This document shows, piece after piece, positions 1-8,121 of a DNA stretch of 11,436 bases. The stretch's first letter is position 1; every line of letters starts with the position of its first letter. A program made the position numbers and the translations under genes. The stretch lies in UHGV virus genome UHGV-0258155; one strand, written 5' to 3'. The stretch is from a virus. The notes beneath the pieces were generated by a model, which had not been told where the DNA came from, did no database searches, and was given only the letters and a program-made list of their open reading frames with translations.

Positions 1-2813
1 CGCCAGGCATCCAGCAGTTCGTCGGCAAATACGGCATCTGGTTTGACTGCCTTCACGGCCTGGATCATGTCTGCTTTGGTACCGTACACTTTCAGTGGTG
101 CCGGTTTCTGTGCTTCCTGAGCCACAAGGTCAGGGTTGATGATTGCCAACTGCTCCAGCAGCGCGTCACGGCTGCCGCTGGTTTTAACCGGCGGCGGCAG
201 GGTGGCGTTGTACTCTTTAATGCATGCCTTCATTGCCGTCGCCGTCTGCTTCTGGTCACCATCAATACGCTGGAAGTCAGCTGGCAGCGCCATATAGTTC
301 TGTGCCGTTTCTTCCAGGTTAGCGCCAAGCGGAACCTGCGGCGGCAGGGTGGCGTTGTACTCTTCCAGTAACACCTTGATGTCGTCGGCAGACAGCAGCG
401 CCGGCAGGCTGGCATTGTGCTCATCGATAAAGGCGCGCAGGGTCGCGGCCGTTGTGAATGCGCCTTCAGGGATCACCGGTTCAACGCTGAATTCTGCGTC
501 CAGTAGTTCAGGCTGCAACGCCAGCGCATGCACCAAGTTGCCCATGTCCAGCACCGCTGAGCGCTCTTTGACGATGGTTTTCTCTACGTGGCGCGCATTG
601 AAGTACATCAGCGAAACGCGCGCATCTTTCACCTGGGTTGAGCTGATGCCGTTGGCGGCGTGGTAAACCTCGTTTGGCAGCCCTTCATAGCGGCCTGGCT
701 CGAAATAAGCGGGATAAACAACAGCCGGTTCGTCAGATTGCGCTTCTGGCTCGGTTTGTGCTGCAACTGGTTCGGTTTGGCTTACAGAATCGCTATTTTT
801 GGCGACAGAATCCGTATTCTGGTTTACATCGTCCTTCTGGCTGGTATCTGACTCTTCACCAGACTCCAGACTGCTTTCGCCTGGCTGTACTTCATCACCA
901 GCTTGTTTTTCATCACTGACAGTTTCTTGAACCTGCACATTGCTGGTGGTCTCCGTAGCCTTTTTCGTGCCATGAGTTGCTGAGTTCTGCAGCAAAGCCG
1001 TAACGTCGAATATTCCGTTGCCGACATTTTTAACCAGTTCTTGTTCGACTTTCTGCGGTTGTGCTGCCGCTTCCTCTGCGCGGCGGCGTGCTCCTTCTTC
1101 ACGCACGCGTTGCAGGTTCTCTTCGTGAGTGCAGAAGGATTTGCGCGGAGACTCCTTACCTTCAGGTTGGGGAATTTCCTGTGCTGCGGGTTCAGCCTCA
1201 TGCAACGGCAATAACTCGACCGCGGAATTGAACGCGGCTGTCATGGTCTGGTTAACAAATTCCAGGTGAGCGACAGGAGTTAAATGAATATTTTCCGGTG
1301 CGATACGTACCAGGTTAAAAATAGCCGTGCGGTTAACACCCAGAACGCCTGGCTGATTGCGCAGGATGTTGCTCCATGATTTCCATGGTTCTTCTTTTTT
1401 GGTCACGATTTCTTTAGCGCGACGAAGAATGCTGCCCGGGATCTCGAAGTGGTTGAAGTCCATAGGCAGAAGGGCACACGCAATCTCTAAATCGAGAGTG
1501 TCCAGTGTGTGGTGTGCGTCAGGTCCACGGTCAGTGACGTAACCGCCGTCGGCATTAGTGCCGGAATCAGTACGCTGCACACTACTGATGCGATTACCGG
1601 CGGCCCATTCGCGAACGAGGATACCGCGGTCGATGTGATCTGTAGCGAACCACAATTTCAAAAACTGGATTAAGGTTGCGAGTTCAGGGATTTTTCCATC
1701 GACAGGGAAGACTTTCTTAACGGCATTCACGACTTTATGAATATCGTGCTCAATGGCTTTTTTGAATGCTTCCACATTCTCAGCTGCCAGCAGCAGGTTC
1801 TGGACGTACGCGTCATCGGTGTCCATCTCAAGGCGGACAATCTCATTTTTCTGCCCTGCGTCGATGTGATAGAGATATTCACCATCACCGATGAACTGAG
1901 CCAGTACGCGCTGGCGGAATGGCAGGGTGGCAACAACGATCAGGTTCGGTTGCTGTGTCTGCTGGGATTGCTCTTCGGTATCGACTTCACCATCAACGAC
2001 GCCACCTTCTGCCCGGCCGTTCTCGTCGGTCTGGATACCGTCCTCAACAGTGAGATCTTGACCCGTTGTAACGTCAGCAGCGTTGCTGGTTTCAGTTTTG
2101 AGCAACTGCAACTTACCACTGCGCCAGTCTTCTACCAGTTGATTGCGGTCACCGGCATCGGTGTTCACCCAGTCAGACATGAATGCAGCGATCAATCTTG
2201 GTTCGTGCTCTTCGTCGGGTGTGAAAATGTCCTTAACCGCCCGAATCATTTTCCACTCAGCATTCAGGCTGAGTTTGGCGGTCGCGGGCACATCGTTCCT
2301 TGCCACAAGCAGGCTATGGAGATATGTATTGCCTTCATCCAGTGACATTTCGCTGGCAGCCAACTGCTGCTCTTTAGTGACGTGGGTTTGGTATTTATCG
2401 TTCATCAGATGGACGGCAAAGCGGACCGCTGGAGTACGGTTTTCAACCGGGACAATTTCGGACGCAGTCGCATCTTCAACGATTACGGTCGGAGTAGGTG
2501 TGTAGGGGGCGTCAACGGAACCAGTAGACACACCAGCGGCTTTTGGCAGCCAGGTGCGCCCATCGTCCTGAAGCTCGTAGCGATCACACCAGGTAAAATC
2601 AACTTCACCTTCTTTCGGCAGGCCGTCGACAACTGGGAAATCAGTGCGAATCGGTTTGGCGTAGTCCTTACCCCGACCTGTTTCGATACCTGCATCTTCC
2701 AGCGCAACATCCAGCATCAGATTGGCGCGAGCCTCGGTTTTAGCAGTGAACCAGACCACTGCATCTTGCTTTCCGGATTTCTGAGTGGCTTTAACCACAT
2801 TAAAGAATTCCAT
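1..2813 (-). CDS. recE: RecE-type exodeoxyribonuclease VIII (Rac-prophage-like); start ATG at 2813, 3' end lies beyond window start (>=937 codons in window)
   Basis: Minus-strand frame is open from 2813 to position 1; ATG at 2813-2811 is preceded by GAGGAT (RBS) and an in-frame TGA. Hand translation gives MEFFNVVKATQKSGKQDAVVWF...PVVDGLPKEGEVDFTWCDRYELQDDGRTW...REWAAGNRISSVQRTDSG...YFEPGRYEGLPNEVYHAANGISSTQVKDA. From memory these parallel E. coli RecE segments ([56 protein letters not shown]). The ORF track lists no complete ORF in this frame because it runs off the edge. Confidence 0.85.
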   Translation of the reverse strand, partial: MEFFNVVKATQKSGKQDAVVWFTAKTEARANLMLDVALEDAGIETGRGKDYAKPIRTDFPVVDGLPKEGEVDFTWCDRYELQDDGRTWLPKAAGVSTGSVDAPYTPTPTVIVEDATASEIVPVENRTPAVRFAVHLMNDKYQTHVTKEQQLAASEMSLDEGNTYLHSLLVARNDVPATAKLSLNAEWKMIRAVKDIFTPDEEHEPRLIAAFMSDWVNTDAGDRNQLVEDWRSGKLQLLKTETSNAADVTTGQDLTVEDGIQTDENGRAEGGVVDGEVDTEEQSQQTQQPNLIVVATLPFRQRVLAQFIGDGEYLYHIDAGQKNEIVRLEMDTDDAYVQNLLLAAENVEAFKKAIEHDIHKVVNAVKKVFPVDGKIPELATLIQFLKLWFATDHIDRGILVREWAAGNRISSVQRTDSGTNADGGYVTDRGPDAHHTLDTLDLEIACALLPMDFNHFEIPGSILRRAKEIVTKKEEPWKSWSNILRNQPGVLGVNRTAIFNLVRIAPENIHLTPVAHLEFVNQTMTAAFNSAVELLPLHEAEPAAQEIPQPEGKESPRKSFCTHEENLQRVREEGARRRAEEAAAQPQKVEQELVKNVGNGIFDVTALLQNSATHGTKKATETTSNVQVQETVSDEKQAGDEVQPGESSLESGEESDTSQKDDVNQNTDSVAKNSDSVSQTEPVAAQTEPEAQSDEPAVVYPAYFEPGRYEGLPNEVYHAANGISSTQVKDARVSLMYFNARHVEKTIVKERSAVLDMGNLVHALALQPELLDAEFSVEPVIPEGAFTTAATLRAFIDEHNASLPALLSADDIKVLLEEYNATLPPQVPLGANLEETAQNYMALPADFQRIDGDQKQTATAMKACIKEYNATLPPPVKTSGSRDALLEQLAIINPDLVAQEAQKPAPLKVYGTKADMIQAVKAVKPDAVFADELLDAW
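191..364 (-). repeat. Pair of identical 27-bp direct repeats (191-217 and 338-364), 147 bp apart and in frame inside recE; each encodes EYNATLPP
   Basis: gcggcggcagggtggcgttgtactctt occurs at 191-217 and 338-364. Translation in the recE frame gives KEYNATLPPP and EEYNATLPPQ; a third degenerate copy DEHNASLPA lies upstream in the protein. Confidence 0.8.
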
Positions 2814-2931
2814 GTGAGATCCTCATTTTTGGGTGTTAGAATCCCCGGACCATTGATAGCGCCCATTGGGTTAACTTTGGTTTTAATGTTGTTTCCGGTG
2901 TAACTTTGGTCGGTGAGGCCGGACATGGCGG

Positions 2932-2947
2932 GCCCACTTCGGTGGGC
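2932..2947 (-). other. GC-rich hairpin (GCCCAC-TTCG-GTGGGC) in the intergenic region between the RacC-position ORF stop and the recE start
   Basis: Perfect 6-bp inverted repeat with a 4-nt loop read directly; no U-tract follows on the minus-strand transcript, so this is not a classical intrinsic terminator. Confidence 0.3.
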
Positions 2948-2953
2948 TTTCGC

Positions 2954-5396: not shown

Positions 5397-6329
5397 TTAA
5401 AGAACCGATTTAACAAGATGGTTTTTACGGTACAGACCTATGCGATCATTGTGAATCTCAGTAGTCTCCACTAAAAGAGAAACAATCTGTCCGACCTTGT
5501 GTTTTTTTTGTATTAAATCTAGCATTTCAATCGGATAGGAAGCCTTTAAATGTTCACCACCAACATCAAGCTCCAGCTTCCCATATTTGGATAGAACGAC
5601 CAGTTCGCCTGTAACCGTTTCAGTAATGGGAGGGGATGAAATGGTTGATGTAAGTCTACTCACCAAGTACTTAATTTTATTGGAGTCAATAGTTGCCACC
5701 TTGGTGCCATTACTAAATGGACCGGTCCAACTTGCATCAAATGTTAAGTTGTGTTTATCGCATTCCTCTACGATTCTCTTAAGGCTTACAGTGGAATTGT
5801 ATCCAATTTCAGCGACGTGATTCATGAAGTTGTTGTCGTCATCGCTTAACAACAAATCGAATATGCCTTTTACAGCCTTGCTGGGTACTGTTTCTACTAA
5901 TTCTGCTATTCCTGTAGAGAAGGTGACGCCCAATTTTGTAGACCCAGGGGATAAATCAGCCAGCCTGAGGTTTAAGGAGCTTTTCACGTCGTAGGGAACT
6001 TTTTTTGAGTCCTTGCCTGAGGCAATTTTGTGTGTTGCTCTTTGTATTAGCGCTGCAAGATTTGTTGAAATAGCCCCAAGCAGCTCTAAAGGAATAGAGC
6101 CAAAGTCAACCTCAGAGCCTTTCAGCCGCAGCTCAAAAAAATCGATAAGTGGGTGCCGACTATCTTGCTTTAATTTTTCGGCCTTCAAATCGCTCAGATG
6201 AGAATCCATGGAGCGATAAAGAAGCATGTCAGCAAAGGACCTGGTTTTGTTTTGCTTCATTGCATCGACTTCTTTTTGAATGAAATCAATGCGTTTATCG
6301 CAATTTTTAAACATTGATTTATCATTCAT
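5397..6329 (-). CDS. Hypothetical 310-aa protein, second gene of the cassette; no motif recognised
   Basis: ORF-track ORF; ATG at 6329 overlaps the TGA of the upstream gene (ATGA, 6326-6329), with GAGGA upstream; AT-rich codon usage (K/N/I/S rich); followed by an intrinsic terminator. Confidence 0.7.
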   Translation of the reverse strand: MNDKSMFKNCDKRIDFIQKEVDAMKQNKTRSFADMLLYRSMDSHLSDLKAEKLKQDSRHPLIDFFELRLKGSEVDFGSIPLELLGAISTNLAALIQRATHKIASGKDSKKVPYDVKSSLNLRLADLSPGSTKLGVTFSTGIAELVETVPSKAVKGIFDLLLSDDDNNFMNHVAEIGYNSTVSLKRIVEECDKHNLTFDASWTGPFSNGTKVATIDSNKIKYLVSRLTSTISSPPITETVTGELVVLSKYGKLELDVGGEHLKASYPIEMLDLIQKKHKVGQIVSLLVETTEIHNDRIGLYRKNHLVKSVL

Positions 6330-6805
6330 AAAAAAATCCTCACTAACCCTTTCGGGTTTTCACTGCGATCAAAACCAAACCAACCGCGCCAGTAGCTACG
6401 CCAGTACTCATAATCATAGTTAGGGTCATCTAAATTCTTCATGAGTAGTAGGACATCAATTTTGTAGTTTTGTTTGATGTAGTTTCGGTCAAGCAAATTA
6501 TCGACGCGGCCCCGAAGCATGACAGGTATTGAGTTTATATTGCTATAGTCACATACCAACAAAATATCAATATCATCAGGCTCTGGTTTAGACGTGGTGT
6601 ATGAACCATCAACCCATATTTCTGTAAAACAGCCATATTGAGCAGATAATTCTCGAATAGATTCGAGTAGCTGTATAAAATTACAGTATAGCATGCCTCG
6701 CCTGGATGATGAAGGAAAGCAATCGACACAATACGATTTTAATCCAGCTTCATCCATGTCATGGAACCCTGGCTCAAACAGGGGTGGGTAATTAATTTTA
6801 TCCAT
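6326..6805 (-). CDS. 159-aa protein with a minimal nucleotidyltransferase (Pol-beta superfamily)-like motif, first gene of the cassette
   Basis: ORF-track ORF; ATG at 6805. Sequence IWVDGSYTTSKPEPDDIDILLV fits the hG[GS]-x9-13-DxD pattern, with a further candidate acidic residue in NYKIDVLLL. Motif match by eye only. Confidence 0.65.
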   Translation of the reverse strand: MDKINYPPLFEPGFHDMDEAGLKSYCVDCFPSSSRRGMLYCNFIQLLESIRELSAQYGCFTEIWVDGSYTTSKPEPDDIDILLVCDYSNINSIPVMLRGRVDNLLDRNYIKQNYKIDVLLLMKNLDDPNYDYEYWRSYWRGWFGFDRSENPKGLVRIFL

Positions 6806-6841
6806 AAAAAACCTTGCTATACATTTGTTTTTTTTATTAAA

Positions 6842-6869
6842 AATCTAACCACCGAAATGGTGACGGCAA
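6842..6869 (-). promoter_or_regulatory. Candidate promoter for the cassette: TTGCCG (6869-6864) - 16 bp - TAGATT (6847-6842)
   Basis: Read on the minus strand about 37 nt upstream of the ATG at 6805; the spacer contains a short inverted repeat CACC-N6-GGTG. Read-through from the cI promoter is an alternative. Confidence 0.3.
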
Positions 6870-6953
6870 GATGTTACATGGGGTTACAATCAGCCAATAC
6901 ACCGCATTAAATAATTTTTTCACCAGCTATGCGCCGACCAGAACACCTTGCCC

Positions 6954-7066
6954 ATCACCCAAACGTCTCATCAGGCCACCATAAGCACGATCGCAACAAC
7001 CGAGAGCAAAGTAACCACGCCTACTATCAGATATTCTCTTATCACCCAAACGTCTCTTCAGGCCAC
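6954..7066. repeat. Two 26-bp direct repeats (6954-6979 and 7041-7066, one mismatch) between the cI stop and the cassette
   Basis: atcacccaaacgtctcatcaggccac and atcacccaaacgtctcttcaggccac read directly, 87 bp apart; the second copy ends 5 nt from the cI stop codon. Confidence 0.75.
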
Positions 7067-7071
7067 TAAAA

Positions 7072-7782
7072 TTATCGGCGATATCGCAATACCGAGTACC
7101 AGAACACAAAACCGATTATCTCGACATCTGCCTCATCAGCCTCTTCATCGTCATAATCGCGATTGATGCTTCGTATTAATAGCTTCCCACCAGGCTTTCG
7201 ATAAAGCTGCTTTATGCGCTTTAAATCGCCCTGGTTAATAGCATAGAGTTCGCCGTCAATAATCCGCTTGTTGCCTGTATCGACTGCTACCGTTGCGCCG
7301 TCAGGAATAACGGGCTCCATGCTGTCACCAGAAGCGGGAAAGCAAAGCACTCCAGAACCATCACTATTTGCACCCACCCTTCTGAGCGTTGCCTTGGAGA
7401 ACCTCAGTTTAAAGCCGTTATGATCTTCGCTATGAACACGCCCATCACCACACGCAAACTCGATATCCTTCAGAAACGGTACTTCCACCTCATCGTCAGG
7501 TAGGGGGGTATTTTTGTCCCAAGCGTCGACAGTTCCCCACTCAGACTCTGGCGGGATGTTGCTCTCCAGATCCTTCTTTGGAGAACCCTCTCCATTTAAT
7601 AACCAGTCAAGAGAATAACCGAATTTTTCAGATATTTGTTGCGCCGCCTCACGACTTAACGCGTCTCTTTTTATCCAGTTGTTGACGGTCTGTGGGCTAG
7701 TCGACAAAGCCTCAGCCAAATCCCGCTGCTTCAAGCCTTCCCTTGCCAGTAAAAATTTAATTCTTTCAGAAATGCTGCTCAT
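7072..7782 (-). CDS. CI-type prophage repressor: N-terminal XRE-family HTH plus C-terminal S24 (LexA-like) self-cleaving peptidase domain
   Basis: ORF-track ORF 7072..7836. I place the start at the internal ATG 7782 (MSSISERIKFLLAREGLKQRDLAEAL...), which has GGAGCGGAGGG immediately upstream. GDSMEP (Ser nucleophile) and a downstream LKRIK Lys fit the S24 family. Confidence 0.85.
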   Translation of the reverse strand: MSSISERIKFLLAREGLKQRDLAEALSTSPQTVNNWIKRDALSREAAQQISEKFGYSLDWLLNGEGSPKKDLESNIPPESEWGTVDAWDKNTPLPDDEVEVPFLKDIEFACGDGRVHSEDHNGFKLRFSKATLRRVGANSDGSGVLCFPASGDSMEPVIPDGATVAVDTGNKRIIDGELYAINQGDLKRIKQLYRKPGGKLLIRSINRDYDDEEADEADVEIIGFVFWYSVLRYRR

Positions 7783-7899
7783 AAAACCCTCCGCTCCATG
7801 CATGGTAAACAACATGTGGATTTTTTCCATCACCATAATGTTGATTTAATCCACGCCATGAATTAACATGGTGTTGATTACACATGAGCGGAGCAAAAC
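7783..7899. promoter_or_regulatory. OR-like divergent promoter/operator region between the cI-like and cro-like genes; three TGTKGATT repeats (7815, 7839, 7872); candidate PR TTGATT (7841-7846) - 17 bp - TAACAT (7864-7869)
   Basis: Repeats read directly and shared with the OL-like cluster; the motif GGTGTTGA at 7870-7877 recurs as its reverse complement TCAACACC at 4947-4954. Confidence 0.45.
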
Positions 7900-8121
7900 A
7901 TGATCAACAAAAAATCCAACGCCAGCACCCCGCTTGAGAAAGCCATTAATGCAGTGGGCGGCTCTCAAAAGGTGCTTGCTGAAAAGGTCGGCGTAACGCC
8001 TCAGGCCATCAATATGCTTAAAAAGCGAGGTGGCAGCCTTCCAGTAACAAAAATGCGTAAATACGAAGAAGTAACCGGACTTCCTCGCGAAGTTCTATAT
8101 CCAGGTATCTTTGCCGCCTAA
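7900..8121 (+). CDS. Cro/YdaS-like small HTH regulator (73 aa)
   Basis: ORF-track ORF divergent from the repressor; GGAG 6 nt upstream of the ATG; AINAVGGSQKVLAEKVGVTPQAINMLKKRG is a typical Cro/YdaS-type helix-turn-helix. Confidence 0.7.
   Translation: MINKKSNASTPLEKAINAVGGSQKVLAEKVGVTPQAINMLKKRGGSLPVTKMRKYEEVTGLPREVLYPGIFAA

Follow-up and report, generated by a model that had tools for sequence, protein, structure and literature searches.

In the window analyzed here (the whole stretch of 11,436 nucleotides from the virus genome UHGV-0258155), the gene of a phi80-type CI repressor is followed, in the direction of transcription, by an intergenic region at 6806-7071 and then by a two-gene cargo cassette (Table 1). 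The repressor is recognized by the Pfam families Peptidase_S24 (4e-19) and Phage_CI_repr (2e-10), its gene shows 87.6% nucleotide identity to phi80 cI over the aligned 3' part (window 7072-7398), and an identical repressor gene has been annotated by RefSeq in KL53, which, like E. coli G3/10, is a strain with this prophage. To the right of the repressor lie cro-like, YdaT/cII-like and replication genes, and the relevant genes are all encoded on the minus strand; on the basis of this gene context, the locus corresponds to the cI-downstream accessory position of a lambdoid prophage, the site of rexAB in lambda. The cargo carries the Pfam domain DUF6932 (1.7e-24) and belongs to PHROG 9194 and PHROG 6603. 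By profile match, its two genes satisfy the adjacent A and B models of PADLOC for PDC-M63, a candidate defense system (PDC-M63A, 1.8e-41; PDC-M63B, 7.5e-45).

Within the intergenic region, two 26-mers agree at 25 of 26 bases, with one base different, and their starts are 87 bp apart. When the window was searched for the 26-mer pattern with at most 3 mismatches, exactly these 2 sites were found, against an expectation of 0.00 (200 shuffles, none of which gave a match), and a repeat search indicated that the pair can be extended to 31 nt at 90% identity. Copy 2 ends 5 nt from the TAA stop of the repressor, which occupies 7074-7072 of the minus strand. An earlier sequence-only reading of this DNA had reported the near-identity of the two 26-mers, their spacing and the closeness of the second copy to the cI stop, and all three were confirmed in the sequence.

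Table 1. Features of the repressor-cargo interval, listed in the direction of transcription (window coordinates)
Feature	Coordinates	Strand	Description
phi80-type CI repressor	7072..7782	-	HTH and S24 peptidase, 236 aa, ends ...GFVFWYSVLRYRR-TAA
Copy 2 of the 26-mer	7041..7066	-	ATCACCCAAACGTCTCTTCAGGCCAC; cI-end relic, TGG CCT GAA GAG ACG TTT GGG TGA = WPEETFG-stop
Candidate small protein gene	6971..7045	-	24 codons, GTG start, MIREYLIVGVVTLLSVVAIVLMVA; predicted single hydrophobic helix
Spacer	6980..7040	-	61 bp, body of the small ORF; 97-100% identical across contigs
Copy 1 of the 26-mer	6954..6979	-	ATCACCCAAACGTCTCATCAGGCCAC; second cI-end relic, WPDETFG-stop; also mosaic joint
Lambda post-cI homolog	6924..6953	-	Matches the 31 bp after lambda cI, GGCAAGGTGTTCTGGTCGGCGCATAGCTG; travels with the cargo module in the window
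PDC-M63 leader	6806..6923	-	Promoter-like string, weak terminator-like hairpin and T-run (6867-6848), AAGG, ATG at 6805
Cargo	5397..6805	-	DUF6932 protein (6326-6805) and 310-aa partner (5397-6329); candidate anti-phage system PDC-M63 A and B

The origin of the two 26-mers becomes apparent when they are read on the minus (transcribed) strand. Both give TGG CCT GA(A/T) GAG ACG TTT GGG TGA, or WP(E/D)ETFG-stop, which represents the last eight codons and the stop of a lambda-type cI, running in the direction of the resident repressor gene. Lambda 37196-37251 aligns with window 6924-6979 at 94.6% identity, and because this alignment places the lambda cI stop at 37227, copy 1 can be equated with that terminal stretch of the gene. 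Copy 1 is also matched by the cI ends of 434, SfI, HK544, VT1-Sakai and mEpX1, and copy 2 is matched at 97-100% by the cI ends of H-19B, HK542, HK244, BP-4795 and ev099. In five of the collected loci (L009, L012, L014, L041 and L048), the 26-mer is the genuine end of an intact lambda-type cI, and in L001 the stop of an annotated LexA-family repressor falls at the position equivalent to window 6955. In the window itself, neither copy lies inside an intact repressor frame; an in-frame TAG comes after the TAA of the phi80-type cI, and four stops precede copy 1 in the relic frame. Because the resident repressor is of the phi80 type with its own stop, and because stops precede both copies in frame, the copies are untranslated relics. 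Taken together, these comparisons show the two 26-mers to be leftover 3' ends of lambda-family cI genes, which do not belong to the translated cI in the window. Neither this origin nor the conserved small ORF in the spacer had been noticed in the sequence-only reading. Three repressor classes have the relic in frame with the heterologous repressor before it, and the class ending MPQTYRKHG-stop has it out of frame; the in-frame cases were treated as coincidence. As the source of the 87-bp unit, duplication in tandem of the final ~87 bp of a lambda-type cI was considered and was not supported, the sole similarity between the unit and a cI 3' end being a 10-mer, GGTTGTTGCG, with p ~0.01-0.02 before multiple-test correction.

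Copy 1 is, in addition, the place at which two homology tracts meet. The homology tract of the cargo module, as seen in mEpX1 and HCP8S3-type prophages, spans 6806-6979, and the phi80 tract spans 6955-7071, with overlap only at copy 1. In a five-way alignment, phi80 is identical to the window through copy 1 and unrelated past it, whereas for mEpX1, HCP8S3 and lambda identity or similarity to the window begins with copy 1, the sequence before it being unrelated. Since the phi80-like and cargo-module homology tracts overlap there, the alignments show copy 1 to be a mosaic joint, which, as judged from sequence comparison, connects a phi80-like immunity segment with the PDC-M63 cargo module. The distribution of the two tracts is in line with this. 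The whole of 6806-7071 is common to only 5 of 5426 complete E. coli genomes; 12 of the 30 best-listed E. coli records share 6806-6979, in these cases behind lambda-type or mEpX1-type repressors, with one more record in which the match stops at 6957, and phi80-carrying strains share 6955-7071. In phi80, where the two 26-mers and the spacer are 98% identical to those of the window, the next gene is a different one, 40A. The suggestion made from the sequence alone that the repeats are a scar of the insertion that delivered the cassette is therefore partly right: copy 1 is the exact overlap of the cargo and phi80 tracts, but the pair was not created by delivery of PDC-M63, because both copies pre-exist in phi80 with 40A as the cargo.

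Phage phi80 and ~95 other contigs contain nearly the same unit, made up of a 26-mer, the 61-bp spacer and a second 26-mer. Copies were gathered by pattern scans of IMG/VR, GTDB genomes and metagenomes, which yielded 97 copies of the unit and 53 distinct complete contexts, the latter classified by the 45 nt before the upstream 26-mer and the 60 nt after the downstream 26-mer. These contexts fall into 12 upstream (repressor-end) classes and 27 downstream classes, found in 40 combinations. True lambda-type cI, phi80-type cI and repressors ending MPQTYRKHG-stop and WYSVLL-stop are among the upstream classes, and the downstream classes include PDC-M63, 40A and many other genes, as well as merely a strong terminator-like hairpin in four loci. 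The same repeats are thus present irrespective of cargo, across all 27 classes, an observation that the sequence-only reading had itself named as speaking against its proposals. The unit is also far more uniform than its neighborhood: contigs in which the last 150 nt of the adjacent cI genes show 76-80% identity share the spacer at 97-100%. Few complete E. coli genomes carry the unit (64 of 5426); of 40 entries sampled from the resulting ranking, at least 35 were phi80-carrying or laboratory strains.

Several loci display what exchange within the 26-mer would be expected to leave behind. L072 combines the repressor of the window with the cargo of the window around a single 26-mer, the 87-bp unit being precisely absent. 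The PDC-M63 module has been joined at two points within the 26-mer, with GAT in the window, L015 and L016 and with GAA in L010 and L011. In five further loci (L028, L038, L059, L068 and L029), the lambda post-cI segment is found upstream of the 26-mer and small ORF, so that its order relative to the small-ORF unit is swapped. We infer from the precise loss in L072, the two join points of PDC-M63 and the swapped order that exchange within the 26-mer has probably been recurrent. The 26-mer may act as a homology patch, at which single crossovers between collinear lambdoid genomes would reassort repressor alleles, the 87-bp unit and the cargos; such crossovers could be made by RecA or by phage Red/Rad52-type recombinases. 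Reassortment of this kind would be an instance of the classical linker idea and agrees with relaxed homologous recombination by enzymes of the Red/Rad52 type; homeologous recombination by Red/Rad52-like recombinases has been proposed for lambdoid mosaicism (PMC2327257, PMC3945230). An exact Chi site as the cause of a recombination hotspot was rejected, as the region holds no exact site and just a 7/8 match, GCTGGTGA.

The spacer between the repeats is open in one reading frame, and this frame is built in part from the repeats themselves. Its GTG start (7045-7043) lies within copy 2 and overlaps the TGA of the relic (GTGA), so that the small ORF runs one frame over from the relic frame; its TGA stop is at 6973-6971, and copy 1 supplies, in its first nine bases, the final GTG GCC TGA. 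Copy 2 also supplies the likely ribosome-binding stretch, GAAGAGA, which is weakly Shine-Dalgarno-like. Across contexts, GAGA or GAGG is found 7 nt upstream of the GTG, and the frame stays open in all 97 copies and in both paralogs. In 53 of 53 contexts, no variation is seen in GTTTGGGTGA, the 3' portion of the upstream 26-mer, where the putative ribosome-binding stretch and start lie. The 5' portion of this 26-mer is variable, and so is the tail of the downstream copy, in which the constancy of the first nine bases was imposed by the search patterns. The predicted peptide has a GRAVY of 2.26 and a best 19-residue window of 3.01, and its predicted helix is of membrane-spanning length. A strong intrinsic-terminator-like hairpin lies directly 3' of the small ORF in L009, L013, L018 and L058, which indicates that cI and the small ORF form a closed unit in these loci. 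The other frames and the opposite strand over the spacer are closed in a paralog, poorly conserved or reliant on replaced flanks. Three other candidates, a 60-aa ORF with a TTG start (6927-7109, minus strand) and two plus-strand ORFs over the repeats, were rejected because they begin or end in flanking sequence that relatives have replaced and because the variable sites within them are non-synonymous or create stops. For a -1 frameshift from cI into the small ORF, no canonical slippery heptamer was found, and the relic upstream is untranslated in most contexts.

The pattern of variation in this frame is that of a coding sequence, as far as the few changes allow. Among the 97 copies there are 8 nucleotide versions, with 5 variable sites; all five are at codon position 3, three of them synonymous and two I/M, for which the chance is ~(1/3)^5 = 0.004, an argument that rests on few events because the diversity of the small ORF is very low. 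Scans of GTDB and metagenomes for diverged copies returned more copies and zero new sequence diversity, and much of the near-identity probably reflects recent spread instead of selection. More distant comparisons come from two paralogs, each known from a single locus. In L013, a diverged tandem paralog, MMRDYLIVGTVTVLTATVIFLIVA, has its own ATG with GAGGG upstream; outside the start codon it has 23 differences, distributed 7:4:12 over codon positions 1:2:3, with five synonymous codon differences, including AGA/CGA and CTT/TTG, and a dN/dS of ~0.44 at this one locus. In a permutation analysis that placed the same number of changes at random, 0.5% of trials gave a frame of equal hydrophobicity and equally few replacements (p = 0.005). 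In L025, a third paralog, MRKYLAIIIAAALAALIVWQWVLDVG, is followed by a degenerate 26-mer. Both paralogs retain an open hydrophobic frame starting MR(E/D/K)YL.

On this evidence, the spacer probably holds a small gene for a 24-residue membrane peptide, and we consider it somewhat likelier than not that the ORF is translated. If so, it would be made in lysogens from the cI transcript (pRM), with translation coupled to that of cI where the upstream 26-mer is a real cI end; elsewhere ribosomes would be recruited by the GAGA or GAGG that precedes the GTG by 7 nt. Our best guess is that the product would be a single-pass inner-membrane protein of the lysogenic-conversion or exclusion type, comparable to the small membrane ORFs, of the YoaK family and others, that related phages have at this position.

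Alternatively, the repeats and spacer could be neutral debris of repressor replacements, containing an ORF that is never translated and that owes its conservation to recent spread. The near invariance of the spacer, with 8 versions in 97 copies, fits such recency; the peptide is absent, in any start variant, from a collection of 15 billion proteins and has no significant match in NCBIfam or PHROGs, and the ORF is without annotation in the phi80 records, the RefSeq E. coli genomes or any other record examined. The window allele, furthermore, has only a GTG start and a weak Shine-Dalgarno-like stretch. However, debris would not be expected to vary exclusively at third codon positions, or to have two diverged paralogs that keep an open hydrophobic frame with the same MR(E/D/K)YL beginning and with synonymous exchanges such as AGA/CGA and CTT/TTG. 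Nor does it account for the invariance of just that part of the upstream 26-mer in which the putative ribosome-binding stretch and start are located, while relic positions outside it vary, or for the terminators immediately 3' of the ORF in several phages. We therefore regard neutral debris as an unlikely, albeit serious, explanation. If the ORF is translated, its product might instead be a type I toxin paired with an antisense RNA, which would make the unit an addiction module beside cI. The short and highly hydrophobic peptide, which begins MIR or MMR, is presumably similar in style to Ibs- or ShoB-like toxins. Against this, a consensus scan of 6900-7100, a method that can miss promoters, found no promoter-like site on either strand, the ORF, which lies directly behind cI, lacks its own long 5' UTR, and there was neither a match to an Rfam antisense family nor homology to known toxin families; a toxin module thus has only a slim chance of being correct.

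The sequence-only reading had also considered that the repeats might be paired protein-binding sites controlling the cassette, or that they might form RNA structure, and neither proposal is supported. A pair bound by the repressor or an accessory factor would fit the layout, in which two near-identical sites spaced 87 bp separate a regulator gene from a cassette, yet the 26-mer is without dyad symmetry, and it accompanies 12 different repressor ends, which imply different binding specificities, and 27 cargo classes, among them no cargo at all but a terminator. Moreover, the sequence is already explained by its identity to cI coding sequence, and L072, with the same repressor and the same cargo, has a single copy. 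The probability that the repeats are such a control site is, in our judgment, close to nil. A transcribed intergenic region with a weak terminator-like hairpin and T-run downstream of the repeats could host a structured or processed RNA toward the 3' side of the cI transcript, for instance a terminator, an attenuator, an RNase site or a small RNA, but folding is no better than in shuffled sequences (z = -0.35 for 6806-7074 and +0.67 for 6950-7074), the whole-window scan gave no Rfam match in 6806-7071 at E <= 10, direct repeats are unable to pair with each other, and the single terminator-like site found compares with a shuffle mean of 1.3. An RNA element is accordingly very improbable. A hammerhead reading of the string CUGAUGAG in copy 1 was likewise rejected.

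With regard to the expression of the cargo, a promoter had been proposed directly in front of the cassette. The string, TTGCCG-N16-TAGATT, is indeed present at 6869-6842 on the minus strand, and the -10 hexamer ends 36 nt before the ATG of the cassette (6805). It matches the consensus at 4/6 positions in each hexamer, or 8/12 in total, which is below the scan threshold of 9/12, so that it was not called; promoter-like sites in 6600-8000 are no commoner than in shuffles, and the terminator-like hairpin overlaps the spacer of the proposed promoter. The leader is identical in all near-identical PDC-M63 copies, whatever the upstream repressor, and it is unalignable in the 87% and 62% DUF6932 homologs, save for the AAGG just upstream of the ATG. 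As the leader is identical in the near copies and unrelated in the diverged homologs, the comparison cannot support a promoter, and what is left of the proposal is a string that exists where it was said to be, with a match at chance level. In lambda, rexAB is read in the lysogen from the cI transcript, which starts at the promoter pRM. For the PDC-M63 cassette, read-through of the cI transcript, and not the proposed promoter, would be the most likely mode of expression.

Overall, we favor with reasonable confidence a reading in which the 26-mers are cI-tail relics that serve as a recombination joint, the spacer would be a small gene, and the cargo would be expressed by read-through of the cI transcript. 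A more far-reaching version can be put forward only tentatively, and we would rate it below even: the 87-bp unit might be a self-contained, recombination-mobile small-ORF cassette, whose cI-tail repeats let it hop among, or drop out of, all lambdoid phages with a cI tail of the lambda type, and which would encode a new 24-residue membrane protein co-expressed with the repressor and having a physiological role in exclusion, defense or toxicity.

These observations make the locus a clean, base-resolved example of the way in which short border sequences may drive lambdoid mosaicism. One 26-mer derived from the tail of cI connects accessory or defense cargos of more than two dozen kinds with a dozen types of repressor, and the products expected of such exchange, namely swapped flanks, swapped order and precise loss, are all present at the locus. 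In practical terms, the 26-mer can be used as an anchor (TGGCCTGAWGAGNNGTTTGG) for finding prophage cargo in the cI-downstream defense hotspot, and the negative outcome of the regulatory analyses removes both the proposed site pair and the proposed promoter from consideration. Phage phi80 and the E. coli cloning strains in commonest use, such as the phi80lacZdeltaM15 strains DH5alpha and DH10B, all carry the candidate peptide gene without an annotation; if the proposed gene is real, DH5alpha, DH10B and phi80 lysogens would co-express an overlooked 24-residue membrane protein together with the repressor.

The closest known relative of this arrangement is the phi80 immunity region (X13065, JX871397), in which both 26-mers and the spacer likewise lie downstream of cI; unlike in the window, the unit is followed there by gene 40A and not by PDC-M63. 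Neither of the two phi80 records annotates the repeats or the small ORF, and in the literature on DUF6932, PDC-M63, the phi80 immunity region and boundary sequences, we found neither the joint nor the peptide described. The cI-rexA-rexB arrangement of lambda is similar in that the cargo sits directly downstream of cI and upstream of pL/N, in the same orientation, and the 31 bp after the lambda cI stop are kept in the window at 6924-6953; it differs in that the window has PDC-M63 in place of Rex, a phi80-type repressor and the extra 87-bp unit. Another parallel is offered by small single-pass membrane proteins of enterobacteria and their prophages, such as the YoaK family (NF033821). Size (24-32 aa) and the single hydrophobic helix are alike, and ORFs of the YoaK family occupy the same cI-downstream position in L024, L029 and L037, although in sequence the window peptide resembles neither YoaK nor any NCBIfam or PHROG family.

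At a more general level, the modular theory of Susskind and Botstein is said to have described short conserved linker or boundary sequences at the junctions of lambdoid modules. The 26-mer resembles these linkers in being a short sequence shared between non-homologous modules, at which homology tracts meet and around which many combinations of flanks are found. Unlike them, it is a defined 26-mer from the C-terminus of cI that persists untranslated, as a relic, after heterologous repressors, and two copies of it bracket an 87-bp unit able to move or drop out. Sequences shared at borders, relics of gene ends at mosaic joints, and accessory or defense genes downstream of cI are all of known kinds. 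What is specific to this locus is the cI-tail 26-mer behind heterologous repressors, its two copies around a mobile 87-bp unit, and the candidate small membrane protein encoded between them. The joint itself is a mosaic boundary of an ordinary kind, and the modestly new part is the candidate small gene.

A natural variant of the arrangement in the window is provided by L072 (IMGVR_UViG_3300013942_000108), which carries the same phi80-type repressor and the same PDC-M63 cargo, the candidate anti-phage system downstream of cI, but has only a single copy of the 26-mer direct repeat upstream of the DUF6932 gene. The 87-bp unit, consisting of one 26-mer and the 61-bp spacer, is precisely absent, which is the outcome expected of recombination between direct repeats. 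In five other loci (L028, L038, L059, L068 and L029), the arrangement is opposite to that of the window: the segment homologous to the sequence following cI in lambda (GGCAAGGTGTT...TAGCTGGTAG) is located upstream of both the 26-mer and the small ORF. Because the order is swapped in these loci, the lambda post-cI segment and the small-ORF segment act as separate units, with the 26-mers between them.

Further small single-pass membrane ORFs share the cI-downstream position (L013, L024, L029 and L037), and in L024, L029 and L037 the small-ORF unit precedes them by about 80-180 nt. A 32-aa YoaK-family protein (NF033821, E = 9e-18) was found at this position, as was a 39-aa ORF, MDDLIYPILLTLLIVGLVGVFMRLDKFFFKRRSDRDVPE, which is present in the protein collection without a name. 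Small membrane proteins thus appear to be recurrent cargo of the cI-downstream hotspot.

With regard to the cargo itself, the DUF6932 (PDC-M63A) gene at the same prophage locus of E. coli KL53 is split by an IS4-like ISVsa5 element, and the candidate defence system of this strain is probably inactivated.

Several other features were located (see table). The isrB match (E = 5e-4) scored 38.2 bits, above the gathering score of 35. It lies on the opposite strand from the early-left genes and terminates in a strong terminator-like hairpin. The Chi-like octamer sits in the leader of the cargo module, just downstream of the 26-mer at 6954-6979 (copy 1), and the sole exact Chi site of the window is at 942-949 (+). 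The 18-nt repeats are unrelated to the 26-mers and are probably phi80-type OR operators.

Coordinates of additional features in the window and in KL53
Feature	Position	Strand	Remark
isrB match (RF01386)	2855-2952	+	Hfq-binding small RNA; Rfam scan
Chi-like octamer GCTGGTGA	6924-6931	-	7/8 match to Chi
18-nt direct repeat ATCACCATAATGTTGATT / ATTAACATGGTGTTGATT	7829-7846 and 7862-7879		cI-cro intergenic region
Interrupted DUF6932 gene, KL53	L003 5183-6723		equivalent to window 6326-6805

The spacer is carried by 64 complete E. coli genomes, and when 40 rows of this set were sampled, at least 35 proved to be phi80lacZdeltaM15 laboratory strains. The candidate small gene is therefore present in common cloning hosts, such as DH5alpha, beside an intact phi80 cI.
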